From the NCBI RefSeq assembly GCF_003418935.1, contig NZ_QVMT01000014.1, positions 27,143 through 91,142 on the forward strand: a DNA stretch of 64,000 bases, given 5' to 3'. Position 1 is the stretch's first letter, and each line of letters begins with the position of its first letter. This DNA is from Emticicia sp. C21. GTDB lineage: Bacteria; Bacteroidota; Bacteroidia; Cytophagales; Spirosomataceae. Shown piece after piece: positions 1,477 to 31,453 of this stretch. The notes under the pieces were generated by a model. It did not search any database. It saw only the letters and a program-made list of their open reading frames with translations, and was not told the DNA's origin. The translations under genes were made by a program, and so were the position numbers.

Positions 1477-3756
1477 TTAGATTCGGCTTTCGGCATCAAC
1501 ACGTGTTACCTGATGAACACCCTCTATCTCACCTAATTGCTTCATCAAGGTCTCTAAATGTTGTGTGTCTTGTACATATAACTTTATATCACCCGTAAAT
1601 ATACCATCATTTGTATCAACTGCCAAAGAACGCATATTAATATGTAGTTCACTTGAGATAACTTTAGAAATATCCTGTATCATTCCCATACGGTCTATAC
1701 CGTCTAGATGCACGGTTGCTACAAAAGCTTTCGCTACCTGAGAAGACCAACGTGCTTTAATAACCCTATTGCCATATTGTGACAATAGTTGTTGGGCATT
1801 AGGACAAGAGTTTCTATGAATTTTAATTCCCTCATTCACGGTCAGGAACCCAAAAACATCGTCTCCCGGTATCGGATTACAACAACGGGCTAAGGTAAAA
1901 TCAATTTCCTGTAAATCATCTCCAATGAAGAGTGTATCATTACCTTTTACTTTCTTAATCTCTTTCTCAAAACTCTTGGCATCAATAAAAGCCTTGTTAT
2001 CTATCTCAATTTTGGCTTGCTTATTCAATCGGGCATCTCTGTCTGCCTTAAATTTCTTTATTTCGTCTGGCTGAATATAAGCCTTGCCAAAGGCATAATA
2101 GAGGTCGTTATAATCTTTTTTATTGAAATAAGCCCTTAACTGGTTAAGCGTTTCGAGATTGTTTTCCAGACCTAAAAGTTTAAATCTCTTAGCAATTATC
2201 TCTTTTCCATCACTATAATATACCTTATTTTCTTCTTTGAGTAAGTCTTTAATACGGGCTTTTGCCTTGCTGGTGGTCACAAACCTAAGCCAATCTTCTG
2301 ATGGTTTCTGGTTTTTGGTGGTTAATATTTCAACCTGATCGCCATTCTGTAAAGTATAACTAATAGGTACTAATTGACTATTTACTTTTCCGGCCGTACA
2401 TTTCTTACCAATATCAGTATGTATTTCAAAGGCAAAGTCTAATACAGTAGCTCCTTTTCTTAATACTTTTAAATCTCCTTTAGGGGTGAAGACAAATACC
2501 TCTTCATTATAAAAATTACCTCTGAAATCTTCTAAAAACTCAATAGCCGATTTATCGCCTGATTGTAAAGTTTCTCTTACTTGATTAATCCAGCGGTCAA
2601 GCGGGGCATTCATCGAGGTATCATTACCTTTATATTTGAAGTGTGCCGCATAACCTCTTTCCGAAATTTCGTCCATACGTTCGGTACGTATCTGCACTTC
2701 CACCCACTGTCCTGTATGGCTCATCACAGTGGTATGCAAAGACTCATAACCATTGGCTTTTGGAATAGAAATCCAGTCTTTCAAACGATCCGGATTCGGT
2801 TTATATTCATCTGTCACAATTGAGTATACTTGCCAACAAGCCGATTTTTCTTTTTCCGGTGTTGTATTGGTTAAGATAATTCTGATGGCAAACAAATCGA
2901 AGATCTCTTCAAAAGTGGTATTCTGCTTTTTTAACTTATTCCAGATAGAATAGATATGTTTTGGCCGACCCTTTATTATAAATTCAATTCCTGTGTCTTG
3001 TAGCTTCTTCTTAAGTGGCTTAATAAAATTATCAATAAATCTATCACGGGTAGATTTTGTACTTTTAAGTTTTTGCGCAATATCTTTAAATACCTCCGGC
3101 TCAGTATATTTCAGATAGAGATCTTCTAACTCAGACTTTATTTTATACAAACCTAAGCGGTGGGCTAAGGGGGCATAGATAAAAATAGTTTCATGCGCAA
3201 TCTTAAGTTGTGAGTTGCGAGCCATGCTACCCAAAGTACGCATATTATGCAGGCGGTCAGCCAGTTTTATCAGAATTACCCTAACATCTTCTGAAAGTGT
3301 AATGAGCATTTTCCGGAAGTTTTCAGCCTGTGCCGAAGTACCCTGTTCAAAATTGCCTGATATTTTGGTAAGCCCATCTATGATGCGTGCCACTTTTGGG
3401 CCAAAATCTTTTTCAATTTCTTTCAGAGTCATGTCTGTATCTTCCACTACGTCATGTAGCAGAGCACAGATAATAGAAGTAGCACCTAATCCGATTTCTT
3501 CTACACAGATTTGTGCTACTTCAAGCGGATGATATATATATGGTTCTCCCGATTTGCGACGCATATCTTTATGCGCCTCCATCGAAATCGTAAATGCTTT
3601 TTTTATCTGCCTGGCATCGTCTCCTTTCAGGGTGGGTTTAGCCGCCCGAAGTAATCGACGATATTTCGTTAATATCTCTGCTCTTTCTTTCTCAAAATCT
3701 ATCATTGGCTCAGACTGACGGCTGGTTTCCACTTTTTCTGCTATTGCTCCTAACAT
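1477..3756 (-). CDS. relA: bifunctional (p)ppGpp synthetase/hydrolase, RelA/SpoT family
   Basis: 759 aa with an HD domain motif (HPLEVAQI...LHDVVEDT), a RelA_SpoT synthetase region, and TGS and ACT-like C-terminal regions. Confidence 0.9.
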   Translation of the reverse strand: MLGAIAEKVETSRQSEPMIDFEKERAEILTKYRRLLRAAKPTLKGDDARQIKKAFTISMEAHKDMRRKSGEPYIYHPLEVAQICVEEIGLGATSIICALLHDVVEDTDMTLKEIEKDFGPKVARIIDGLTKISGNFEQGTSAQAENFRKMLITLSEDVRVILIKLADRLHNMRTLGSMARNSQLKIAHETIFIYAPLAHRLGLYKIKSELEDLYLKYTEPEVFKDIAQKLKSTKSTRDRFIDNFIKPLKKKLQDTGIEFIIKGRPKHIYSIWNKLKKQNTTFEEIFDLFAIRIILTNTTPEKEKSACWQVYSIVTDEYKPNPDRLKDWISIPKANGYESLHTTVMSHTGQWVEVQIRTERMDEISERGYAAHFKYKGNDTSMNAPLDRWINQVRETLQSGDKSAIEFLEDFRGNFYNEEVFVFTPKGDLKVLRKGATVLDFAFEIHTDIGKKCTAGKVNSQLVPISYTLQNGDQVEILTTKNQKPSEDWLRFVTTSKAKARIKDLLKEENKVYYSDGKEIIAKRFKLLGLENNLETLNQLRAYFNKKDYNDLYYAFGKAYIQPDEIKKFKADRDARLNKQAKIEIDNKAFIDAKSFEKEIKKVKGNDTLFIGDDLQEIDFTLARCCNPIPGDDVFGFLTVNEGIKIHRNSCPNAQQLLSQYGNRVIKARWSSQVAKAFVATVHLDGIDRMGMIQDISKVISSELHINMRSLAVDTNDGIFTGDIKLYVQDTQHLETLMKQLGEIEGVHQVTRVDAESRI

Positions 3757-5593: not shown

Positions 5594-6198
5594 TTTCCCT
5601 CCCAGCAGTATGATTTTAAACAAAATCTCCCAAAACCCTTGCCAATCCCCTCATAAACCCCGAAATTTAGGGTACATCCAGTCGTCGGGTCTTGCATTAT
5701 AATCCATGTAATAACTATTGCCATGAAGGAAGGGAAAAAGAAAGTCGGAGGTATAATTGACTATATATCTGACTATAACCAACAAGCCTGCAATTACTGG
5801 CGAACGGCTAGTTGCGGACGGCCAGTTATGGACGGTCAGTTGCAGATGGCTATTTCTTGTCAGGTGCAACCTATGAGACTCCCGCCCGGTTTTTGGGGAT
5901 ATGTCAGAACCCAAAAAGGTAGTCAATAGGGTGACTACCTTTTTGAATGAAGACAACAGCGCACTAATGGTTTTCAAGTACAAACCACTAAAAAGGAACC
6001 GGAAAAAGGTGACCAATACGGTGGGAACCTTTTTGACGAGTGACAGCGATGGTCACCGGATTATCACTGAGATTTTAAGACTACACGATGTCATTTTATA
6101 ATAGTTGAATTACAAATTTAAACAAGTTCAGTACTTTTGTGAGTCCATTCCAACTAATTGACTGCTAAACCAGTCTTTAAAAGAAAAAGCGTTGTGCC

Positions 6199-8991
6199 AT
6201 GAAAAAAGTTTTACTTCTTGTATTAATATCCCTCAACACTTTTTCACAGGTTTTCTATCTCGATACCACCTTTGTATCTGAGCCTCTTTTAAAGCCATTT
6301 GGTGTTCAGGAGCCTTTGGTAAATCAATTCCCGAATGGATTACTTTATCTTAAATCAAGCGAAAAAATACTTAATGGTGGTTTAGAGGAATCCGGTACTT
6401 TCCTTTTAAATACCGAGGCTAAAATTTTAAAATATCTTACGAATGAAGCCCTGACCGATTATGATTATCGGTACGAAAATTCTGTTATTACACCTGATAA
6501 TAAAATATTGCTTACCCGACTTATTGGTCCATCATCCTATTCATTAATAAAAATCTCTCAGGAGGGTGTGATTGATACAACGTTTAAATTCAGTAATCAT
6601 AAGCGTTATATCTCAAAAATAGCCTTGCTGAAAAATGAAAATTTTGTCTTGTTCTTTTTTAGCCAAGATAGTTACCTGTTACATGAGATGTATGATAAAA
6701 ACGGAAAATTTATCAGATCACTTGCCCCATCTATGTTTACAAATGCCACAGGTGCACAGCTTACAGATATAATATCAAATGATTTGAATGAGTATTTTTT
6801 ATTACTTATTGATAGCAAGCGAAATGCGGAGATAATTAAAACAAACGCAGATTTTGAAATTGATAAGAACTTCTCTCCAGTAAAGTTTAGTGGCATTGAA
6901 GCATATACCCACAAGTTGGAAAGGGTTGGTAATGATTTTCTGGTGTATCAGACAGGTGTTGAAGGGTTAAGAGATAAAGTCGAAAAAATAGACAGAAATG
7001 GTACCAGAATATGGAATATAAGTTTCGATAAAATAAGTGCCTATGAAGAGCGTGTTAATTTTTTTGAGCAGAGTGATGGTAGCATTGATATGATTTATTA
7101 TGATAACAAACACTTAAAAATTAATGCAAAAGGTATAATAGACTCTACTTTGTATGATAGAGAATTTCACAAAAATACGAGTTTTTTACATGCTTTTGCT
7201 GATGGAAGCTATTGGATTATGCGGGATAAAAGCGGTATTATTGAAAAGATGAATGCAGACGGGAGCATTGATAAGGATTTGAGAGTCATAATTCAAGTCC
7301 AAAAACAACTATTCCCTGATCAGATTCTAAAACTACCTACTAATACCTATCTGGTTGATTTTATCAGTCATACCCACGATAATTCTCCATACAGCATCAG
7401 ATACTCTCCATATCCGAAAGCTGTGCAGGTATATGACAATAAGCATAAACTCTTGCATGAGTTTTTTGATAGTAAAACTATCTGGAAAACGTATAAGACT
7501 ACTCATTCATTTGTAGTAAGAGGTGACGGCAAATTCTATACAATTGATGAAGCGAATAAAATGACGGTTTCAAAAGATACGTTGGAAGCAAATGATGTAA
7601 TAGACTGGGATAATAATTTCGTGTATCGGTTGATAAAAAAAGATAGTTTGATAAGATATAAAATAGGGCAGGGGCTTGATAAAACCTTTTTAATTAAGGC
7701 GCAGCAAATAAGCAATTTTATTATTATGGAAGATAAACGAATTGCGATAGAAACCTATGAAAATGGTATACCAGCACGATCCTATATTAATATGTACCAT
7801 ATCAATGGAACATTGGATAGAGCTTTCAAAACTATTGTATTGGATTACAGCTTTTATCAGTTTACAGGTGGATTACCAATAACGATTAAAAATGCAAATG
7901 GATTAATTGTTAACCAGATGGCTGCCGGGGAATATGCGAATATAGTAAAACAGCAATTTCTGAAATATGATAGCAATGGGAATCCGGATAAAGATTATCA
8001 ATCAAATATTTATCGGGGAGGGTATTTCAGACAATACGAAAAAGATGGAAGTATTTTTATGAATACATCTAATGAAGTAAAAGAGCATGGCGAAGAAATT
8101 ATACATAATTTTCTGAAAATTACTCCAAAGGGAAGAATAGATAGTTCATTTACGCTTTTAGGAGCCGATGCAATTTATGGATTTGAGTTCTTTGATGAAA
8201 ATACTTTATACGCCGCAGGGCAGAATAGTTTACTAAGATTTATTAAACAACCATTGAAGAAAGATGAATATTTCCATTATAAAGCTTTACCAAGCCAAAT
8301 GACCTGGGATATTGCTCTACCGAGGAAATTGATTATCAATACCAATATTAAAGATATAAAAGTAGAGGTATCCGGCAATGGTAGTTTTAAAAATGAATTT
8401 ATTTCTTTTGAACCCAAAGCAGGTATTACCTCAATAACTATTAAGGATAATAACAATAGAATACTGGCTAAACAAAAAATAGAACTAACCAGGATTTATC
8501 CACAGCTTATTTATGATGAATCTCAATTCTCTAAGGCTCAGGAACCATTCGAATTTAAAGTACAATCATCATCTGGTTTGCCAGTGAAGATTAGTATAGA
8601 TGGAGGGAATGAACACACAGGAAGTATAATTTTAGACCCTAAAAGAGATAAGGGGCGGAAACTTAAATTGAGAAGTGAACAAACTGAGAAATATGAAACC
8701 CTGGAGATAGAGATAACTTTAGACAAACTGATCCCTTTAGCTACTGAATCAGAAAATATTGGTGTGAGATCCTACCCTAATCCAGTTACTGACAAATTAA
8801 TTGTTGAAAAGAATGGCTTTATAATAGACACATTCAAATTGATAAGTACTGACGGAAAAGCGAACACTTTTGAATTGACTGAATATACTGATAAATACGA
8901 ACTGGTTTTAAGAAATGTATCGAGCGGATTATATTTTCTAGTATTAAGGGCAAAGGACAGACAATTTGTCCGTAGAATCTGGAAAGAATAA
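6199..8991 (+). CDS. large secreted protein with T9SS (Por) C-terminal sorting domain
   Basis: 930 aa with a signal peptide. The last ~80 aa (SYPNPVTDKLIVEKNG...LYFLVLRAKDRQ) match the type-A T9SS CTD pattern. No recognisable catalytic domain. Confidence 0.7.
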   Translation: MKKVLLLVLISLNTFSQVFYLDTTFVSEPLLKPFGVQEPLVNQFPNGLLYLKSSEKILNGGLEESGTFLLNTEAKILKYLTNEALTDYDYRYENSVITPDNKILLTRLIGPSSYSLIKISQEGVIDTTFKFSNHKRYISKIALLKNENFVLFFFSQDSYLLHEMYDKNGKFIRSLAPSMFTNATGAQLTDIISNDLNEYFLLLIDSKRNAEIIKTNADFEIDKNFSPVKFSGIEAYTHKLERVGNDFLVYQTGVEGLRDKVEKIDRNGTRIWNISFDKISAYEERVNFFEQSDGSIDMIYYDNKHLKINAKGIIDSTLYDREFHKNTSFLHAFADGSYWIMRDKSGIIEKMNADGSIDKDLRVIIQVQKQLFPDQILKLPTNTYLVDFISHTHDNSPYSIRYSPYPKAVQVYDNKHKLLHEFFDSKTIWKTYKTTHSFVVRGDGKFYTIDEANKMTVSKDTLEANDVIDWDNNFVYRLIKKDSLIRYKIGQGLDKTFLIKAQQISNFIIMEDKRIAIETYENGIPARSYINMYHINGTLDRAFKTIVLDYSFYQFTGGLPITIKNANGLIVNQMAAGEYANIVKQQFLKYDSNGNPDKDYQSNIYRGGYFRQYEKDGSIFMNTSNEVKEHGEEIIHNFLKITPKGRIDSSFTLLGADAIYGFEFFDENTLYAAGQNSLLRFIKQPLKKDEYFHYKALPSQMTWDIALPRKLIINTNIKDIKVEVSGNGSFKNEFISFEPKAGITSITIKDNNNRILAKQKIELTRIYPQLIYDESQFSKAQEPFEFKVQSSSGLPVKISIDGGNEHTGSIILDPKRDKGRKLKLRSEQTEKYETLEIEITLDKLIPLATESENIGVRSYPNPVTDKLIVEKNGFIIDTFKLISTDGKANTFELTEYTDKYELVLRNVSSGLYFLVLRAKDRQFVRRIWKE

Positions 8992-25689: not shown

Positions 25690-26335
25690 CTATTAAATCA
25701 ACACAATACGCATGGAGAATTGCAGGAGTTGCTTGATGCTCCTGCTCCATGCAAACAACAAAAAGATAGCCTGAATGGACGAGGAGCTTGTCTTGAAAGC
25801 AAGTAATATTGAAAGGTGTTATAGGTTCGATTCCTATTGCCTCCGCAAAAATTAATAAGTAATACCGAGAGGTTTTTGGGCGGTCGCCGCGCGATTCGAT
25901 TCCTATTGCCTCTGCAAAATTAAATGAGCATGTACTCCAATCGGAAGAGAGAGCTGTCTCAGAAGCAGTTTAGTATTGGTTCGAATCCAATCATGCTTAC
26001 TAAATTCTAGCTTTTATAGCTGAATTTGTAAAAAAATAGGGAAAATAGTCCGTAAGTGGAAGCGGGGCGGTCTGTAAAACCGTTGCATTGTGCCTTGCAT
26101 GCGGCCGCCGCGCGGTTCGATTCATGCTTTTCCCACTATGGAGTTGATGAATCAGGGTAATTGCAATATTGCCGCAATTACCCTAGCTGCGACAGATTAT
26201 GCAGTTTGATTCATAATTTTTCAGTAAAAATAATAGAGAGTAAATCCTGCTGGGCAGGGCACTGCCTGCTACGCAGTTGGTTCATACATGAATGAAGTTC
26301 GAGTCTTCTGCTCTCTGCTGAGTGATGATTGTATT
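25690..26335 (+). ncRNA. cluster of degenerate tRNA-like / Y-RNA-like fragments (T-arm-containing remnants and stable hairpins)
   Basis: T-arm motifs: ATAGG-TTCGATT-CCTAT (25818-25834), a degenerate copy (~25893), ATTGG-TTCGAAT-CCAAT (~25975), GTTCGATTC (~26115) and GAAG-TTCGAGT-CTTC (~26296). A 14-bp interrupted hairpin lies at 25711-25753. A Tyr-like unit has a GGGAAAA/TTTTCCC acceptor. None of these folds as a full canonical tRNA. Confidence 0.4.
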
Positions 26336-26337
26336 AT

Positions 26338-26410
26338 GGAAAAATAGCCGAGTTGGTCAAGGCGTTAGTCTGAAACACTAAAGATGTAAGTTCGAATCTT
26401 ACTTTTTCCA
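26338..26410 (+). tRNA. tRNA-Phe-like (anticodon GAA), atypical all-A/T acceptor stem, CCA encoded
   Basis: Folds as GGAAAAA-TA-GCC(G)...D-loop GG...anticodon stem TTAGT/ACTAA, loop CTGAAAC, T-arm GTAAG-TTCGAAT-CTTAC, acceptor 3' TTTTTCC, then A and CCA. The D-stem has only 3 bp. Confidence 0.5.
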
Positions 26411-26505
26411 CCAAAAATTATGAGAAAGTATATAAAATGCTCTGGTTTGAAACGCAAACAACATAAACAGAGCACCATTTAATAAATGTTTTGCTGACTA
26501 AAAAA

Positions 26506-26576
26506 TACTGGATCGTTTAGAGGAAAGATATAACGATACGAACGTTAAGACCAAGGTTCGACTCCTTGTCCGGTAA
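26506..26576 (+). ncRNA. tRNA-like element (Arg-type ACG anticodon arm, irregular D-arm)
   Basis: Acceptor TACTGGA/TCCGGTA; perfect anticodon arm TAACG-ATACGAA-CGTTA; perfect T-arm CAAGG-TTCGACT-CCTTG. The D region does not form a canonical stem. Confidence 0.4.
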
Positions 26577-26622
26577 CAAATAAGTAAAAAGCTATTATAT
26601 TGATTGTTTAAATAAACGTAAA

Positions 26623-27129: not shown

Positions 27130-27302
27130 TAACAGAATAAAAGTTTTTGGAAAATATTTTCAGTTGCAAATATTTGACTATCAGATGTTTGTCGTAATGC
27201 TAAGAGAATATTTTTTACTACGCAAAAAGACTGCGTAGGTGGTGTGAACTTTTGTAGCATCAAATTGATAATTAAGTTCTTTAATAATGATAAAAAGAAG
27301 TG

Positions 27303-27440
27303 CCGTAGAACAGAGTTACTTCGCTTTAGGAGCCGTGTGTCATTGGTTCGAATCCAATCTGCCTGACTAAATAAGTCATTCAGGCAGTAGCTCAGTCCGG
27401 TAGAGCAACGTAAAAGGCTCTTTTCGCTCTTTGCCTTCTT
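27303..27440 (+). ncRNA. circularly permuted tRNA-like module 1 (candidate YrlA-type Y RNA)
   Basis: Order along the strand: T-arm ATTGG-TTCGAAT-CCAAT (27342-27358); closed acceptor hairpin CTGCCTGA-13nt-TCAGGCAG (27359-27387); TA; D-arm GCTC-AGTCCGGTA-GAGC (27390-27406). The flanking helix GGAGCC (27329-34) / GGCTCT (27416-21) covaries with module 2. Confidence 0.45.
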
Positions 27441-27445
27441 TAAAA

Positions 27446-27521
27446 TCTGGGTGTTATGCAAATGGTTATACAACGGTGTTTTGGAGACATCGGTTCGCTG
27501 GTTCGAATCCAGCTACCCAGA
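27446..27521 (+). ncRNA. tRNA-like element (Pro-type TGG anticodon loop, irregular core)
   Basis: 7-bp acceptor TCTGGGT/ACCCAGA; D-arm TATG-CAAATGGT-TATA; anticodon arm GGTGT-TTTGGAG-ACATC; T-arm GCTGG-TTCGAAT-CCAGC. There are 4 extra nt between the D and anticodon stems. Confidence 0.4.
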
Positions 27522-27693
27522 CTATCAAGTGTCGTAGAGAAGTCATACCTCGTTCCAAGGGTTGAGATATAGGTAGTTACCGCAAGATACAAGTCCTATC
27601 TGCAAAGAATTGCAGTGGTCGATATTAAGACGCAACCGTGCTCATGAAAGATGAGCCCATAGCAGACTGCTCGCTTGTTACCTTGATTATTTC

Positions 27694-27783
27694 GCTCGGT
27701 TGGGCAAATTGGTTAAGCCGCCACTCTTTCACAGTGGAGATTACGGGTTCAACCGCGGTGGCGGACCACCCCCGTACCGAGTA
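27694..27783 (+). pseudogene. tRNA-Glu-like (TTC) element with a 16-nt hairpin insertion in the T-loop
   Basis: Acceptor GCTCGGT/ACCGAGT; 3-bp D-stem GGC/GCC; perfect anticodon arm CCACT-CTTTCAC-AGTGG; T-stem ACGGG/CCCGT enclosing a 23-nt loop that contains hairpin CCGC-GGTG-GCGG. Confidence 0.4.
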
Positions 27784-27814
27784 CATGAAGTTTTAAAATT
27801 TAACAGTTAATGCA

Positions 27815-28129
27815 ATGAAAAATGATGTTATCAGATATTTCTTGGTAAACTCTGAAGAGACCGGAAGACATATTGTCACTTCTTTCCGCACAGGCAGAAA
27901 ATATTATATTGAGCCTATCGGTAATGGAAGAATGGCAGATTGGGGAAGTTATAATCCAGGTACGGGTAATATAGAAAATAAGAAAGGAGCAGGAAAGCAC
28001 ACAGGCTCTGTTATGGCCGAAGATTCTGTAATTACACCAGAAAACGGATTCGTGAATATTCATTTGATTGAAAGCGGAAGTCCTTATTCAATCATTGATG
28101 AAATGGATGCAAAACATCCGAGTATATAA
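27815..28129 (+). CDS. hypothetical protein (within tRNA-like array)
   Basis: 104-aa ORF between tRNA-like modules with no recognisable motif. Whether it is really coding is uncertain. Confidence 0.3.
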   Translation: MKNDVIRYFLVNSEETGRHIVTSFRTGRKYYIEPIGNGRMADWGSYNPGTGNIENKKGAGKHTGSVMAEDSVITPENGFVNIHLIESGSPYSIIDEMDAKHPSI

Positions 28130-28142
28130 ATTAAAAATAAGC

Positions 28143-28275
28143 AAGTGTCGTAGACAAGAGATACTTCGCATTGATAACGCAGAGGTCGCACGTTCGAGTC
28201 GTGCATAGATTTCGGTCTATTAGCTCAGGTGGTTAGAGCACTTAAAAGCCTCTTTTCGCTATTTACCTTGCTTAT
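28143..28275 (+). ncRNA. circularly permuted tRNA-like module 2 (candidate YrlA-type Y RNA)
   Basis: T-arm GCACG-TTCGAGT-CGTGC (28188-28204); acceptor hairpin ATAGAT-TTCG-GTCTAT (28205-28220); TA; D-arm GCTC-AGGTGGTTA-GAGC (28223-28239). Flanking helix AGAGGT (28181-86) / GCCTCT (28248-53). Confidence 0.45.
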
Positions 28276-28284
28276 TTTTAAAAT

Positions 28285-28357
28285 GTTGCGATTAGTGTAG
28301 TGGTTTACACGAGGGCTTGTGGAGCCGTTAAGATGAGTTCGAATCTCATATCGCAAC
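28285..28357 (+). tRNA. tRNA-His (anticodon GTG) with encoded G-1 and C73
   Basis: G-1 at 28285; acceptor TTGCGAT/ATCGCAA; D-arm GTGT-AGTGGTTT-ACAC; anticodon loop TTGTGGA; T-arm ATGAG-TTCGAAT-CTCAT; discriminator C. There is one G-G mismatch in the anticodon stem. Confidence 0.7.
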
Positions 28358-28549
28358 CAATCAAATGCCATTGAATGGCTTTGGTTAATTACCCGATTAG
28401 GCAAATGCTGTGACTAAGCTGTGACTAATGCCTAATCAGGGTACAATGAGGTGCCGTAAAAAAGTGATACTTCGCTTGGTGACCAGAAGAAATTCTGGAA
28501 GGTTCGAATCCTTAAACACACTTTTTGCTTTTTGCCCTCATTTTAAGAT

Positions 28550-28622
28550 TACCTCATAGCTCAGTCGGTAGAGCAGCACCCTGTTAAGGTGATGGCCGTT
28601 GGTTCAACCCCAATTGAGGTAG
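28550..28622 (+). tRNA. tRNA-Asn (anticodon GTT)
   Basis: Acceptor TACCTCA/TGAGGTA; TA-GCTC-AGTCGGTA-GAGC; anticodon loop CTGTTAA; T-arm GTTGG-TTCAACC-CCAAT; discriminator G. Confidence 0.8.
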
Positions 28623-28649
28623 CATTTTTAGTCAATGCTGTGATTATAC

Positions 28650-28722
28650 AATCGGATCGTCTAATTGGTAAAGACATCGGGATTTGGCCCCGAAGATTGA
28701 GGTTCAAGTCCTTATCTGATTA
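28650..28722 (+). tRNA. tRNA-Gln (anticodon TTG)
   Basis: Acceptor AATCGGA/TCTGATT; D-arm GTCT-AATTGGTAA-AGAC; anticodon arm TCGGG-ATTTGGC-CCCGA; T-arm TGAGG-TTCAAGT-CCTTA. Confidence 0.8.
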
Positions 28723-28739
28723 CTGAATAGTTTATTTAT

Positions 28740-28813
28740 TACTTTGTAACTCAGTTGGTTAGAGTACCATCCTTTTAAGATGGGAGTCGTCAGTTCGAGC
28801 CTGACCAGAGTAA
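28740..28813 (+). tRNA. tRNA-Lys (anticodon TTT)
   Basis: Acceptor TACTTTG/CAGAGTA; TA-ACTC-AGTTGGTTA-GAGT; anticodon arm CCATC-CTTTTAA-GATGG; T-arm GTCAG-TTCGAGC-CTGAC. Confidence 0.8.
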
Positions 28814-28886
28814 CATCAGGTGCCGTGGATAAGGGTTACTTCGTCTCTAAAACTCTGTTGACTCTTATCGCTTATTGCCCTGAAAT

Positions 28887-28958
28887 GGTCTGATAACTCA
28901 GTGGTAGAGTTGTTTTCTGATACGAAACAGGTCGAAGGTTCGAATCCTTCTCAGACTA
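28887..28958 (+). tRNA. tRNA-Ile (anticodon GAT)
   Basis: Acceptor GGTCTGA/TCAGACT; TA-ACTC-AGTGGTA-GAGT; anticodon arm GTTTT-CTGATAC-GAAAC; T-arm GAAGG-TTCGAAT-CCTTC. Confidence 0.8.
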
Positions 28959-28978
28959 CAATGATTATTTGTTTTTAC

Positions 28979-29051
28979 TACTCTGTAGCTCAGTTGGAAG
29001 AGCGTCATCCTTCTAAGATGAGGGTAATTGGTTCGAATCCAATCAGGGTAA
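28979..29051 (+). tRNA. tRNA-Arg (anticodon TCT)
   Basis: Acceptor TACTCTG/CAGGGTA; TA-GCTC-AGTTGGAA-GAGC; anticodon arm TCATC-CTTCTAA-GATGA; T-arm ATTGG-TTCGAAT-CCAAT. Confidence 0.8.
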
Positions 29052-29187
29052 CATCAAGTGCCGTAGAGAAGAGTTACTTCGTCCGCTAATAGGGGAGGAA
29101 TAGCGAAGTTGTAAAATCAGCAAGACTATCCAGTTCGATTCTGGCTTTGACATGCCCCGTCACTCTTTTCGATTTTTGCCTTGAATT

Positions 29188-29259
29188 GGTTTGATAGCTC
29201 AATGGTAGAGCGGTTCTCTCATAAGGAACAGGCCGATAGTTCGATTCTATCTCAGACTA
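29188..29259 (+). tRNA. tRNA-Met/fMet-type (anticodon CAT)
   Basis: Acceptor GGTTTGA/TCAGACT; TA-GCTC-AATGGTA-GAGC; anticodon arm GTTCT-CTCATAA-GGAAC; T-arm GATAG-TTCGATT-CTATC. Could alternatively be the lysidine-modified Ile2 type. Confidence 0.75.
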
Positions 29260-29333
29260 CAAGTTTGGTGCATCAAATACTTCCTCTCAGAACGGTTCTG
29301 AGATGGCGTTATTCAAACAAAATTTTTTCAACC

Positions 29334-30854
29334 ATGAAATTCAATATTTTGAATCGTGAGAAAAATACAGTTATCAATCACGCAGGAGCTAAAGCTTATA
29401 CACTTACTCCAGCTATGGAACTATACACCAGCGTGGTAACGAGTATCCTGTCAGATACTTTCTATGAAAAGGCTGATGATCGTCTGGCTCGTATTCAGGC
29501 GCTCATCCGTAAAAACGATGCCCAATTTGTAGCAAAACTGGCTGTATATGCCCGTGAAAAAATGTACCTGCGTTCAATCCCTTTGGTATTGCTGACAGAG
29601 CTGGCGCAAACCCATAAAGGTGATAATCTGGTAAGCCGTACGGTTGGCCGTGTGATTCAGCGTGCTGACGAAATTACCGAATTGCTGGCTTGCTACCAGA
29701 TGGCTAACCAGCGTAAAGAAACCAAAAAACTGAACCGTTTGTCAAAACAGATTCAGAAAGGTCTGGCTGAGGCTTTCAATAAATTTGATGAATACCAGTT
29801 CAGCAAATACAACCGTACAGGTACTGATGTAAAACTGCGTGATGCCTTGTTTCTGGTTCACCCAAAGGCAAAAAATGAAGCACAGCAAGTCATTTTTAAC
29901 AAAATTGCTAAAGATGAACTGGTTACAGCTCAAACCTGGGAAACTACTTTGTCAGCCGTGGGTCAGAATGATTTTGATTCAGAAACTCATAAACTGGAAG
30001 CAAAATCACAGGCATGGGAGCAACTGATTCTTAATGGAAAACTAGGATACATGGCTATGCTGCGTAACCTGCGTAACATTATTGAAGCGAACGTAAGCCA
30101 GGAGGCTATCGAAAAAGTATGTGCTACTTTGAGCAATGCTCGTGCAGTAGCTAATGCTAAACAATTTCCTTTCCGTTTCTTGTCAGCTTACCGAGGGGTA
30201 AAGCATCTGCAAAACGGACGGGTAAGCAATATTCTGACTGCTTTAGAAACGGCCGTTCAGCATTCGGCGAATAATATCCGTGGTTTCGATGCTCGTACGC
30301 GTGTAGTAATTGCTGCCGACGTATCAGGTTCAATGCAACGGGCAATTTCTCCAAAAAGTACTGTTCAGAACTTTGATATCGGTTTGATGTTGGCCATGTT
30401 GCTGCAAAACCGTTGCGAGGATGTAGTAACAGGTATGTTTGGAGATACGTGGAAAATCATTAGCGTGCCAAAAAACAATATTCTGGCAAACGTATTGGAG
30501 TTCCATCGTCGTGAGGGGGAGGTAGGTTATTCAACCAACGGACATCTGGTAATTCAGGATTTGATTAACCGAAGAAAAAAAGTTGATAAAATCATGATTT
30601 TTACCGACTGTCAACTTTGGAACAGTAATGGTGGAAGCCCGATTGCTCAGGCATGGGCCGAATACAAAAAAATAGCACCAAATGCTCGTTTGTATTTGTT
30701 TGACTTGGCTGGATACGGAAATACTCCAGTTAATACAGTTAACGAGGGTTCTGTATTTCTGATGGCCGGATGGTCAGATAAAATTTTTGACATTCTTACA
30801 GCTATTGAAGAAGGAAGCAATGCAATTGCTGAAATCAATAAAATTGAAATTTAG
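29334..30854 (+). CDS. rsr: Ro60-related protein (Rsr; TROVE domain + vWA/MIDAS)
   Basis: The vWA MIDAS motif DVSGSM and the Ro60-like blocks KQFPFRFLSAY, LRDALFLVHPKA and IMIFTDCQLWN align with metazoan Ro60 (RIHPFHILVAL / LLRLSHIKP / IFIVFTDCETN). The start was moved to the ATG at 29334 (MKFNILNREK) because the upstream part of track ORF 29181 overlaps tRNA-Met. Confidence 0.85.
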   Translation: MKFNILNREKNTVINHAGAKAYTLTPAMELYTSVVTSILSDTFYEKADDRLARIQALIRKNDAQFVAKLAVYAREKMYLRSIPLVLLTELAQTHKGDNLVSRTVGRVIQRADEITELLACYQMANQRKETKKLNRLSKQIQKGLAEAFNKFDEYQFSKYNRTGTDVKLRDALFLVHPKAKNEAQQVIFNKIAKDELVTAQTWETTLSAVGQNDFDSETHKLEAKSQAWEQLILNGKLGYMAMLRNLRNIIEANVSQEAIEKVCATLSNARAVANAKQFPFRFLSAYRGVKHLQNGRVSNILTALETAVQHSANNIRGFDARTRVVIAADVSGSMQRAISPKSTVQNFDIGLMLAMLLQNRCEDVVTGMFGDTWKIISVPKNNILANVLEFHRREGEVGYSTNGHLVIQDLINRRKKVDKIMIFTDCQLWNSNGGSPIAQAWAEYKKIAPNARLYLFDLAGYGNTPVNTVNEGSVFLMAGWSDKIFDILTAIEEGSNAIAEINKIEI

Positions 30855-30907: not shown

Positions 30908-30979
30908 GGAACATTGGTGAAATGGTTATCATCCTACCCTGTCACGGTAGAATCATGGGTTCGATTCCCATATGTTCCG
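30908..30979 (+). tRNA. tRNA-Asp (anticodon GTC)
   Basis: Acceptor GGAACAT/ATGTTCC; TG-GTGA-AATGGTTA-TCAT; anticodon arm CTACC-CTGTCAC-GGTAG; T-arm ATGGG-TTCGATT-CCCAT; discriminator G. Confidence 0.8.
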
Positions 30980-31112
30980 CGATAGAAACGTAGTTGAACC
31001 TGATGAGGGTTTCATTAAGGCCCCATAGTATTGGAGCAATTGCTTTCAATATGCTGTCAATGAGGGTTCTGTTAATTTATGTAGGTTCGAATCCTGCCAA
31101 GCTAATAAATAT

Positions 31113-31155
31113 GGGCTTGTCGTGTAATGGTTAACACAATGGACTTCCACTCCAT
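31113..31155 (+). pseudogene. 5' fragment of a tRNA-Gly-like (TCC) gene lacking a T-arm
   Basis: GGGCTTG-TC-GTGT-AATGGTTA-ACAC-A-ATGGA-CTTCCAC-TCCAT: acceptor 5' strand, perfect D-arm and anticodon arm. No TTCGA T-arm follows. Confidence 0.4.
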
Positions 31156-31453
31156 AATTTAGAAAACAAGTAAATCAGTCTGAAACTATTCGGGTGTTTT
31201 TACCTTCGCAAAAACACAGTTCAGTACAGACTTGCAAAGAGGAGGATACCGATAGATAGAGGTGATTGCTTCAATGCTGGCGACTACATATATTATAGGG
31301 TGGCTGTCTCGTGGTTACGAGAGACAAACAATTTAGAATTATAGACTAGCCCAAGGCTATTGAACCGATTATCGAAGTCCGTCTTAATCTGATTTCCGTT
31401 TCAATGAATCGGATAGTGTAAGACTGATTTTTAACAAAGTAATTATTAAAATC

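Follow-up and report, generated by a model that had tools for sequence, protein, structure and literature searches.

Six probable Y RNA genes alternate with tRNA genes upstream of Ro60 in Emticicia sp. C21

Ro60 is a conserved protein of RNA surveillance and quality control and a major human autoantigen, and Y RNAs are its obligate partners. The stretch of DNA considered here, hereafter the window, comprises 64,000 nucleotides (nt) of Emticicia sp. C21, a member of the Bacteroidota (contig NZ_QVMT01000014.1, positions 27,143 to 91,142 of the forward strand), and it contains a Ro60 gene preceded by a tRNA array with repeated sequence boxes, A and B, between its tRNAs; it is the nature of these boxes that concerns us. 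The Ro60 gene (29334..30854, + strand) encodes a Ro60/Rsr orthologue of 506 amino acids with a TROVE domain and a Ro60-type vWA domain (Pfam TROVE 1.4e-25, vWA_Ro60 4.1e-08); the protein has 5057 homologues and matches phage Ro60 in the PDB (9L5Y/9KOP). In the region of 27.2-29.3 kilobases (kb), ARAGORN calls nine tRNA genes, all on the + strand, for which the Rfam tRNA model was scored alongside: tRNA-Pro(UGG) (27447..27522, 30.3 bits), a weak tRNA-Glu(UUC)-like gene (27694..27767, only 24 bits with the Rfam model), tRNA-His(GUG) (28286..28358), tRNA-Asn(GUU) (28550..28623), tRNA-Gln(UUG) (28650..28723), tRNA-Lys(UUU) (28740..28814), tRNA-Ile(GAU) (28887..28959), tRNA-Arg(UCU) (28979..29052) and tRNA-Met(CAU) (29188..29260), the last of which ends 73 nt before the Ro60 start codon. 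Genes for a PcfJ-like protein, an RNA ligase and an endonuclease V-like protein lie upstream of the array, and the order 3′ of Ro60 is tRNA-Asp (30908-30980), Band-7 and RtcB.

Box A, a 24-nt element that can be written GTGYCGTRRA-N6-WTACYTCG, has six exact matches in the window, all on the + strand (27300, 27529, 28145, 28451, 28820, 29058), where 0.01 matches are expected from shuffles and none of 100 shuffles gave six. The initial annotation had placed all six copies to within 1 nt and had allowed them an inner gap of 5-8 nt; the six form a gapless alignment in which that gap is constant at 6 nt. Box B (CTCTTTTCGMTNTTTRCC, with up to three mismatches) has five + strand matches against 0.75 expected (27418, 28250, 28519, 28862, 29163), and none of 100 shuffles gave five. 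These are the five copies recognised initially; overlooked was a sixth, degenerate copy on the + strand at 27665-27681 (GACUGCUCGCUUGUUAC), which closes the unit starting at 27529. The placement of the boxes relative to the tRNAs was also described correctly: three box A stems start 2-3 nt past a tRNA discriminator (after tRNA-Pro, tRNA-Lys and tRNA-Arg-UCU, none of which encodes CCA), and all six box B stems end 3-14 nt 5′ of the next tRNA. What the initial annotation did not do was to link the boxes to the Ro60 gene 150 nt downstream of its interval.

Box A and the next downstream box B are the 5′ and 3′ strands of one bipartite stem. Single-sequence folds join the beginning of each box A to the end of the box B that follows. 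The outermost segment, P1a, comprises 5 base pairs (bp), in which the four bases before box A and the first G of box A itself are matched by the five that follow box B; next come a bulged U and P1b, 2 bp of G-Y with R-C. Beyond these lies an asymmetric internal loop, with CGUA in the 5′ strand facing G-N-U-N-N-U-U in the 3′ strand, and then P2, 8 bp of RANNAGNG with CNCUNNUY, above which stands an apical (W)UACUUCG. All six units of the window pair in this way (P1a 5/5, P1b 2/2, P2 7-8/8; 15 bp in total), and the paralogues differ from one another in a compensatory manner: P1a reads AGAAG/CUUCU, GCAAG/CUUGC, UGAGG/CCUCA or UCAGG/CCUGA, P1b is GC/GC in four units and GU/AC in two, and P2 is GAGAAGUC/GACUGCUC in one unit and AAAAAGUG/CACUUUUU in another. 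Because the boxes are complementary and covary, the C/T that had been noted in box A and the G/A in box B are in fact a single covarying pair. Thus, the idea that the boxes flank a recurring module whose core varies or is missing was sound, and it is their description as spacers that must be given up; they are the closing stem of separate RNAs, six in number and 68-162 nt long, with one shared stem and different cores. We did not adopt a hairpin local to box A (GUA...UAC, taken for a D-arm by the tRNA model); both of its sides are invariant, it shows no covariation and it is incompatible with the covarying P2.

How widely is this stem conserved, and what molecule is under selection? We retrieved 80 Bacteroidota loci, 954 kb in all, by Ro60 alignment; individual loci are designated by L numbers. 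The closest, that of Emticicia sp. BO119 (L001, 95% Ro60 identity), is 83-97% identical to the window where aligned (72% for the weak tRNA-Glu), which is too close to tell selected from neutral positions. A search of related arrays had been suggested at the outset, and the boxes do recur in the orthologous array of this strain, in other Spirosomataceae and across the Bacteroidota. The box A core is present in 1-8 copies per locus on the Ro60 strand, and the rare minus-strand or outlying matches have no paired box B. Two swap tests that are free of circularity address the pairing of the arms: when box B was located by P2 and P1b only, P1a was fully paired in 162 of 203 cases, as against 11% with exchanged 5′ arms, and when box B was located by P1 only, at least 7 of the 8 P2 positions were paired in 87%, as against 26% after the exchange. 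All modules anchored by the stem according to the first of these tests lie within 3 kb of Ro60, upstream of the gene in six loci (the window, L001-L004 and L050) and downstream in 66 others.

R1, a covariance model that we derived for the stem from 22 short modules, detects five of the window's six modules at E values between 1e-10 and 1e-15, with no comparable match anywhere else in the 64 kb. Partial box A-like strings at 3330 (GTGCCGAAG) and 6194-6244 (GTGCCATGAAAAAAGTTTTACTTCT) are chance matches; no paired box B was found for the first, and the region of the second scores only about 11 bits with R1 (E 1.5). On the 80 loci, R1 gives 233 matches (E <= 1e-3) in 77 loci, every one of them on the Ro60 strand; of the three loci with no match, two are contigs under 3 kb, and in the third a 224-nt module was identified by hand. 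When the best 150 R1 matches are aligned, 96.3% of the cells pair, compared with 44-58% when the partners are slid, and double-sided changes occur at 14 of the 15 stem pairs. Of the 2219 cells, 120 are G-U and 19 are A-C, and because G-U outnumbers A-C to this extent, the selected molecule is RNA of this strand. A strongly selected stem exists as RNA of this strand, and throughout a phylum it is associated with Ro60 loci. The invariant positions are U6, C9, G10, U11 and U23-A24-C25-U26-U27-C28-G29 on the 5′ side and G157, U167 and U168 on the 3′ side; unpaired bases are therefore held constant while paired bases covary, which is the pattern expected of a protein-binding site.

The six modules, all on the + strand, differ greatly above this common stem. 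M1 (27296..27439, 144 nt; box A 27300-27323, box B 27418-27435) is YrlA-like, YrlA being a bacterial Y RNA that is considered below. Its stem consists of P1a (27296-27300/27435-27439), the bulged U (27301), P1b (27302-27303/27433-27434), the 5′ loop CGUA (27304-27307), P2 (27308-27315/27418-27425) and an apical UUACUUCG (27316-27323), and its core (27324-27417) contains a T-arm (T-loop 27346), an acceptor-like stem of 8 bp that is closed by a 13-nt loop, and a D-arm (27388-27406). R1 scores M1 at 49.3 bits (E 2.5e-10), and positions 23-87 of the Rfam YrlA model align to 27334-27412 at 38.8 bits. M3 (28141..28271, 131 nt) is YrlA-like as well, with P1a GCAAG/CUUGC, P1b GU/AC, P2 at 28153-28160/28250-28257 and an apical AUACUUCG; in its core, a T-arm (T-loop 28192) is followed by an acceptor-like stem of 5 bp, closed by a 6-nt loop, and by a D-arm (28221-28239). 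It scores 54.2 bits with R1 (E 1.3e-11), and YrlA positions 23-87 align to 28180-28245 at 39.5 bits. For these two modules the label 'permuted module' used initially was a fair one, the order of T-arm, closed acceptor-like stem and D-arm being the published YrlA layout. tRNA-Pro follows M1 after 7 nt and tRNA-His follows M3 after 14 nt.

This architecture is not confined to the window. Among the related loci, modules tend to be either about 68 nt or 125-146 nt long. When RNAalifold is applied to 44 canonical long modules, P1 and P2 emerge along with the T-arm, the acceptor-like stem and the D-arm, and compensatory changes are seen at 23 of 30 pairs. As a separate observation, in 31 of these 44 modules (for example, L009:8476-8619 and L023:9098-9228) the UUCG of box A provides the 5′ side of a short hairpin whose loop has 7 nt, and 12 of the 31 loops show the anticodon-loop signature CU-NNN-AA (for example, CUCAUAA, CUGUUAA and CUUUUAA). 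The tRNA-like domain may thus retain an element resembling an anticodon arm, the V arm of the literature; M1 and M3 are less regular at this point.

M4 (28447..28540, 94 nt) pairs P1a UGAGG/CCUCA, P1b GC/GC and all eight positions of P2 (AAAAAGUG/CACUUUUU) around a 44-nt core that holds one hairpin (CCAGAAGAAAUUCUGG) and a T-arm (T-loop 28502) and is devoid of a D-arm or acceptor-like stem; R1 gives it 58.9 bits (E 8.6e-13), orthologues occur at L001:5390, L003:5566, L134:4566 and L137:753, and tRNA-Asn begins 9 nt downstream. M5 (28816..28883, 68 nt) is a minimal hairpin, which starts 2 nt past the tRNA-Lys discriminator and ends 3 nt before tRNA-Ile. Its stem (P1a UCAGG/CCUGA, P1b GC/GC, P2 GAUAAGGG/CUCUUAUC, 8/8) is topped by the apical UUACUUCG and an 18-nt loop with no further core, R1 scores it at 69.8 bits (E 1.4e-15), and its minimum-free-energy fold is this same stem (z = -2.5); there are 27 distinct hairpins of about 68 nt across the phylum. 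M6 (29054..29184, 131 nt) starts 2 nt past the tRNA-Arg(UCU) discriminator, ends 3 nt before tRNA-Met and 150 nt 5′ of the Ro60 gene on the same strand, and has P1a UCAAG/CUUGA, P1b GC/GC and P2 GAGAAGAG/CUCUUUUC (8/8; R1 56.8 bits, E 2.8e-12). Its 81-nt core (29082-29162) contains conserved GGAGGAAUAGCGAAG...CAAGACUAUCC helices and a T-arm (T-loop 29133) enclosed by GGGG/CCCC. A core of this type, with a GGAAUAG/CUAUCC helix inside GGGG...CCCC and an inner hairpin that shows compensatory changes, is found in six other loci, including L002:5711-5842, L038:9384-9518, L132:2399-2533, L137:930-1063 and L138:629-757. The M6-type core spans Spirosomataceae to Chryseobacterium, usually stands 3′ of tRNA-Lys(UUU) and resembles a tRNA that is missing its D-arm.

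M2 (27525..27686, 162 nt) begins 3 nt past the tRNA-Pro discriminator, ends 7 nt before the weak tRNA-Glu and has P1a UCAAG/CUUGA, P1b GU/AC, an apical AUACCUCG and P2 GAGAAGUC/GACUGCUC (27537-27544 with 27665-27672, 7/8 paired). R1 cannot span its 162 nt, even with filters off, and it was verified by hand and by its orthologues, L001:4470-4631 and L137:129-265, which occupy the identical slot after tRNA-Pro and before tRNA-Glu. Its 112-nt core (27553-27664) forms three hairpins, which the orthologues keep through compensatory or G-U-compatible changes, together with a conserved single-stranded GUGGUCGA..AAGACRCAAC; it has no tRNA-like arm and no similarity to tRNA, to 23S or 16S rRNA or to any Rfam family. 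Two resemblances seen by eye were rejected: that of the M6 core to the 3′ end of 16S rRNA (GAAGUYG...CAAGR), for which local alignment gives z between -0.2 and 1.5, and that of the M2 core to 23S helices H69-H71, for which alignment scores are no better than those of shuffles. Compared with E. coli 23S or 16S rRNA, M2 and M6 give z between -0.4 and 0.4, which is not significant.

We conclude that the boxes are very probably the closing-stem strands of six paralogous Y RNA genes, of a divergent, Bacteroidota-type branch of YrlA/Y RNAs, which lie head to tail with tRNAs and are co-oriented upstream of Ro60, the presumed protein partner of all six RNAs. YrlA is a Ro60-bound RNA encoded beside Ro60 that carries a T-arm/acceptor-like/D-arm domain and two conserved 5′ features, GNCGAAN0-1G, the proposed Ro60 recognition site, and YUAY (Chen et al. 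2014, PMC4201824). The modules lie within about 4 kb of the TROVE gene on the same strand, and in all six the ends pair in a two-part stem of 15 bp. Their box A motif is G-Y-C-G-U-A-R, except in M5 (G-C-C-G-U-G-G), and in 150 relatives the bases G, Y, C, G, U and A are found 150, 150, 150, 149, 150 and 137 times, respectively, such that GYCGUA agrees with the published GNCGAA at five of the six specified positions. UUAC or AUAC follows in all six modules, and U, A and C are present in 150, 140 and 150 of the 150 relatives. The domain of T-arm, closed acceptor-like stem and D-arm is found in M1 and M3, to which positions 23-87 of the Rfam YrlA family (RF02553) align at E about 1e-7 in a local search; these matches are not artefacts of tandem tRNAs, because the acceptor-like stems close with 13-nt and 6-nt loops and no tRNA is called there. 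Additionally, a search of viral contigs with the box A string gave 47 matches, 26 of which are chance strings with neither stem nor Ro60, and Ro60 is present in 11 of the 21 loci with real modules and in 0 of the 26 with a chance string.

Several observations weigh against this assignment. The published 5′ motif is not literally present, position 5 being U and not A in all 150 copies, and four of the six modules are without the domain that defines YrlA, M4 and M6 having a T-arm only and M2 and M5 no tRNA-like arm at all; these four would be 'other Y RNAs' of the YrlB type. The scores of M1 (38.8 bits) and M3 (39.5 bits) fall below the RF02553 gathering score of 69, and a scan of 11 Bacteroidota Ro60 loci gave no YrlA match at that score. 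The percentages obtained for covariation lean high, the sequences having been chosen or aligned with the stem in mind, and it is the swap tests that are fair. A minority of the viral-contig modules, such as that at L102, have no Ro60 in the stretch examined. Lastly, the Ro60 binding and the processing route proposed below are inferences, drawn from published work on Ro60 and Y RNAs and from the geometry of the array, respectively. As for the scores, YrlA candidates beside Ro60 in phages are also below the gathering score (50, 44 and 39.6 bits); the complete Rfam consensus was displayed with the help of two of these phage loci, and the candidate beside Ro60 in Xanthomonas phage Alcala shares a UUACUUCGACUGUUAAUCGAG segment, with UUACUUCG included in a phage candidate. 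At gathering thresholds, Rfam reports only tRNAs in the window and in 11 related loci. In short, the arrangement is unusually rich for a known kind of RNA, and the standard catalogue, Rfam, does not detect it.

Could the box stems instead serve the tRNAs? The initial annotation had offered shared processing signals as one explanation, and a tRNA does lie 3-14 nt past every module of the window, three modules begin 2-3 nt after a tRNA, and the stem, at 15 bp in two segments, is long enough for RNase III. Processing stems bracket 16S and 23S rRNA, and it is conceivable that the boxes are substrates of RNase III or entry points of RNase E/G in the precursor of a tRNA array, with neither a stable RNA nor a role for Ro60. 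In the 80 related loci, however, 73 of 176 modules have no upstream + strand tRNA in the locus at all, and in most of the loci no tRNA adjoins the modules. Because the stem is found beside Ro60 genes in 77 of the 80 loci, often with no tRNA nearby, it cannot primarily be a tRNA-processing signal. The modules always follow the Ro60 strand within 3 kb of that gene, their cores hold conserved, covarying tRNA-like folds, and the invariance of the unpaired bases and of the apical UACUUCG fits a sequence-specific protein better than a double-strand nuclease. For these reasons we consider a purely processing role unlikely.

The permuted order of arms in M1 and M3 raises a different prospect, namely that these two are circularly permuted tRNA genes, with the 3′ half (T-arm and 3′ acceptor strand) placed ahead of the 5′ half (5′ acceptor strand and D-arm), whose ends are brought together by the box stem, with cleavage and RtcB ligation yielding functional tRNAs. 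The order of T-arm, acceptor-like stem and D-arm, the 8-bp stem and 13-nt linker of M1, the presence of RtcB and a second RNA ligase in the locus and the fact that the M. smegmatis YrlA is cleaved by RNase P and receives CCA would all suit such a route, yet the acceptor-like stem of M3 has 5 bp and a 6-nt loop and is not the 7-bp stem of a cloverleaf, and M2, M4, M5 and M6 share the boxes but could never give a tRNA, so the route fails for five of the six modules. Moreover, what is found at the junction is a bulged stem of 15 bp that carries a Ro60-type motif and not a bulge-helix-bulge, the identical layout is the published architecture of Ro60-bound YrlA, and bacteria are not known to have the splicing endonuclease that permuted tRNAs need; we regard this origin as very improbable. 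We give least credence of all to the boxes being inert relics of duplication, or sites that act as DNA, such as the attC-like recombination sites of a cassette array. Two adjacent units are indeed tandem paralogues (79% identity), one unit is present or absent between close relatives, and imperfect inverted repeats with extrahelical bases do recall attC sites. Relics would decay, whereas this stem is kept across Bacteroidota orders with compensatory changes at 14 of 15 pairs; the G-U to A-C ratio of 120 to 19 reflects selection on RNA of one strand, 233 of 233 copies share one orientation relative to Ro60, and no integrase is found among the flanking genes examined. We thus retain the assignment of the six modules as Y RNA genes.

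Duplication has nonetheless contributed to the array. The unit tRNA-Lys(UUU)-M5-tRNA-Ile(GAU) (28736-28965) is 79% identical to tRNA-Arg(UCU)-M6-tRNA-Met(CAU) (28975-29266), and what separates the two is a single 63-nt indel within the core of the module and a change of one base in each anticodon (TTT to TCT in one, GAT to CAT in the other), such that tRNA-Arg(UCU) is a paralogue of tRNA-Lys(UUU) and tRNA-Met(CAU) of tRNA-Ile(GAU). The second unit is absent in Emticicia sp. BO119 and present in L138, a metagenomic locus with 96% Ro60 identity. The 79% identity of two adjacent units means that tRNA-Y-tRNA units have been duplicated, and the serial duplication proposed in the initial annotation is thus borne out for the last two units, the one pair for which it can be demonstrated. 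It also took the units in which the boxes abut for copies whose core was deleted; the 68-nt form and the M6-type core are, however, old conserved classes and not recent deletion products. The tRNA-Arg(TCT) unit was said to have only a degenerate T-arm between its boxes; what lies there is the 81-nt M6 core, conserved in six other loci.

How might such an array work? We envisage that Ro60 binds the scaffold through the invariant, mostly unpaired bases G-Y-C-G-U-A of the 5′ strand, and that the variable cores are effector modules by which Ro60 is tethered or gated, by analogy with the complex of Ro60, Y RNA and PNPase; the cores may also present tRNA-like surfaces to the RNA-repair enzymes encoded nearby, RtcB and the RNA ligase. 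The array would be transcribed as one or a few precursors. Because three modules start 2-3 nt after a tRNA, all six end 3-14 nt before one and, in the 80 loci, 40 modules begin no more than 5 nt from an upstream tRNA, a polycistronic release is plausible in which RNase P would cut at the 5′ ends of the downstream tRNAs and RNase Z or exonucleases would act at the 3′ ends of the upstream tRNAs, freeing Y RNAs that keep an overhang of 2-3 nt at the 5′ end and one of 3-14 nt at the 3′ end. Y RNAs would then be released from a tRNA-punctuated transcript much as in D. radiodurans, where Yrn2-tRNA-Asp-Yrn1 derives from one polycistronic precursor (Chen et al. 2014, PMC4201824).

The related loci hint at what else the scaffold can carry. 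In 10 of the 80, the core of one module starts, directly after box A, with a copy of 23S rRNA helix 69-70, in which an identical run of 16-33 nt includes the H69 loop and is followed by condensed H71-H73-like segments (L019:8504-8666, L004:5121-5344, L036:7793-8019, L038:8994-9208, L050:3869-4038, L055:8674-8889, L057:10455-10669, L069:7958-8152, L075:9181-9398 and L079:8355-8572). For example, L019:8504-8666 matches E. coli 23S 1909-1934 at 26 of 26 positions (score 52, against a shuffle maximum of 27), and the core of L075 reads CGUAACUAUAACGGUCCUAAGGUAGCGAAAUUC. In these modules the UUCG of box A makes up the 5′ side of the H69-like hairpin. The slot that M2 occupies is comparable, yet M2 has no detectable rRNA similarity, and a profile of the 10 true 23S-like cores (nhmmer) has no match in the window. 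No description of 23S-like Y RNA cores was found in the literature searched. The relatives, and not the window itself, thus suggest that the scaffold can carry mimics of different RNAs of the translation machinery.

A broader reading, which we put forward only tentatively and think doubtful as it stands, is that Bacteroidota Ro60 loci encode a modular 'display' family of Y RNAs, in which a constant Ro60-binding scaffold bears interchangeable mimics of translation RNAs that serve as decoys, sensors or guides. If so, the mimics would be the tRNA-like elbows of M1 and M3, the T-arms of M4 and M6 and the 23S helix 69-70 of at least 10 relatives, and the cores of M2 and M6 would be further examples. 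The Y RNAs, together with the spare tRNAs, RtcB, the RNA ligase and the endonuclease V-like gene, would steer Ro60 and the repair enzymes to damaged tRNA and rRNA, the damage coming, for example, from ribotoxins or anticodon nucleases, and phages with a bare scaffold hairpin and no Ro60 (L102) would exploit or block the Ro60 of the host. At L102:10642-10705, a 64-nt box A/B hairpin (R1 61.5 bits) stands between terminase and portal genes of a phage contig with no Ro60 in the 14.6 kb examined, and a phage may carry a bare Ro60-type scaffold. At L094, L100 and L108, viral modules lie beside tRNA arrays with no Ro60 in the stretch examined.

What draws our interest to this locus is that one strict scaffold bears swapped versions of the variable 'effector' half of Y RNAs (tRNA-like, T-arm only, none, three-hairpin and, in relatives, a 23S copy). 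Nature thus supplies a set of constructs with which to study the recruiting function of that half, and the 15-bp stem with invariant unpaired bases is a candidate Ro60 site. The tRNA-punctuated layout makes a prediction about how the RNAs are excised. Y RNAs of the Bacteroidota escape the current Rfam model phylum-wide, with arrays of up to six or more per locus, and their recognition explains the puzzling 'spacers' and 'permuted tRNA-like' pieces in the annotation of Bacteroidota tRNA arrays.

Other features of the locus deserve mention. The stretch at 25750-26600, upstream of the array, contains tRNA-Leu-CAG, Phe and Arg-ACG with several degenerate tRNA-like pieces and no box A/B; among these are duplicated T-arm/acceptor ends at 25826-25859 and 25895-25928 (88% identity) and weak tRNA matches at 25766-25838 and 26039-26135. 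Between the weak tRNA-Glu and M3 is an open reading frame of 104 amino acids (27815-28129) with no Pfam or PHROG match, the surroundings of which are 95% identical to L001. In the 88-nt spacer from tRNA-His to M4 (28359-28446), ATTAGGCA...TGCCTAAT form a long inverted repeat, and there is also a weak terminator-like hairpin (28367-28379); the spacer could be a point at which the array divides into two transcription units, or it could itself be a further small RNA. Scans for sigma-70 promoters and intrinsic terminators gave counts at shuffle level, such scans being ill-suited to Bacteroidota promoters. Past tRNA-Asp, at 30980-31450, there are tRNA-like fragments, namely a T-arm at ~31076-31108 and a weak tRNA match at 31115-31172, and no box A/B.

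How, finally, does the array compare with systems already described? A full-text literature search, to which the supplementary tables of Chen et al. 2014 and key reviews were external, turned up neither an account of Y RNA arrays in the Bacteroidota nor one of tRNA arrays with Y RNAs set between the tRNAs. A close counterpart is YrlA (RF02553; PMC4201824; Wang et al. 2018, bioRxiv 10.1101/312249), which likewise lies a few kb from Ro60 on the same strand with RtcB in the locus, has a two-part terminal stem with an internal loop, shows G-N-C-G-x-A near the 5′ end and then YUAY (here UUAC/AUAC), and orders hairpin, T-arm, closed acceptor-like stem and D-arm as M1 and M3 do. Here, however, the motif is GYCGUA with an invariant U at position 5; both strands of the stem are conserved, whereas only the 5′ strand is recognisable among published YrlAs; the apical UACUUCG is invariant even in modules that have no tRNA-like domain; and there are six genes in the locus in regular alternation with tRNAs, in place of one or two.

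The loci of D. radiodurans (Yrn1/Yrn2) and M. smegmatis (YrlA/YrlB) also have several Y RNAs upstream of Ro60 in one precursor, of which one bears a tRNA-like module, and the D. radiodurans precursor includes a tRNA (Chen et al. 2014). In Emticicia, by contrast, six Y RNAs alternate with nine tRNAs, each Y RNA stands directly 5′ of a tRNA, there are at least five classes of core, and co-transcription is presumed from the layout. Metazoan Y RNAs, by citations of the X. laevis Ro-Y RNA structure, share a terminal stem with a conserved bulged pyrimidine (the Ro60-binding GGUCCGA bulged helix) and a conserved purine-rich 5′ strand below a variable effector loop (GGU-C-CGA, compared with xxG-U-GY-CGUA here), but they have no tRNA-like module, are polymerase III genes rather than members of operons and place the bulge in another register. 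The row of Ro60, tRNA-Asp, Band-7 and RtcB is the neighbourhood given for the tRNA associated with band 7 (b7a-tRNA) and for YrlA, and tRNA-Asp(GUC) at 30908-30980, between Ro60 and the Band-7 gene, has the position described for that tRNA; the box A/B modules differ from it in not being tRNAs and in their place on the opposite side of Ro60. As in bacterial and phage tRNA arrays, the tRNAs themselves form a dense, co-oriented run in an accessory locus, with atypical acceptor stems and paralogues that differ by one-base anticodon changes.

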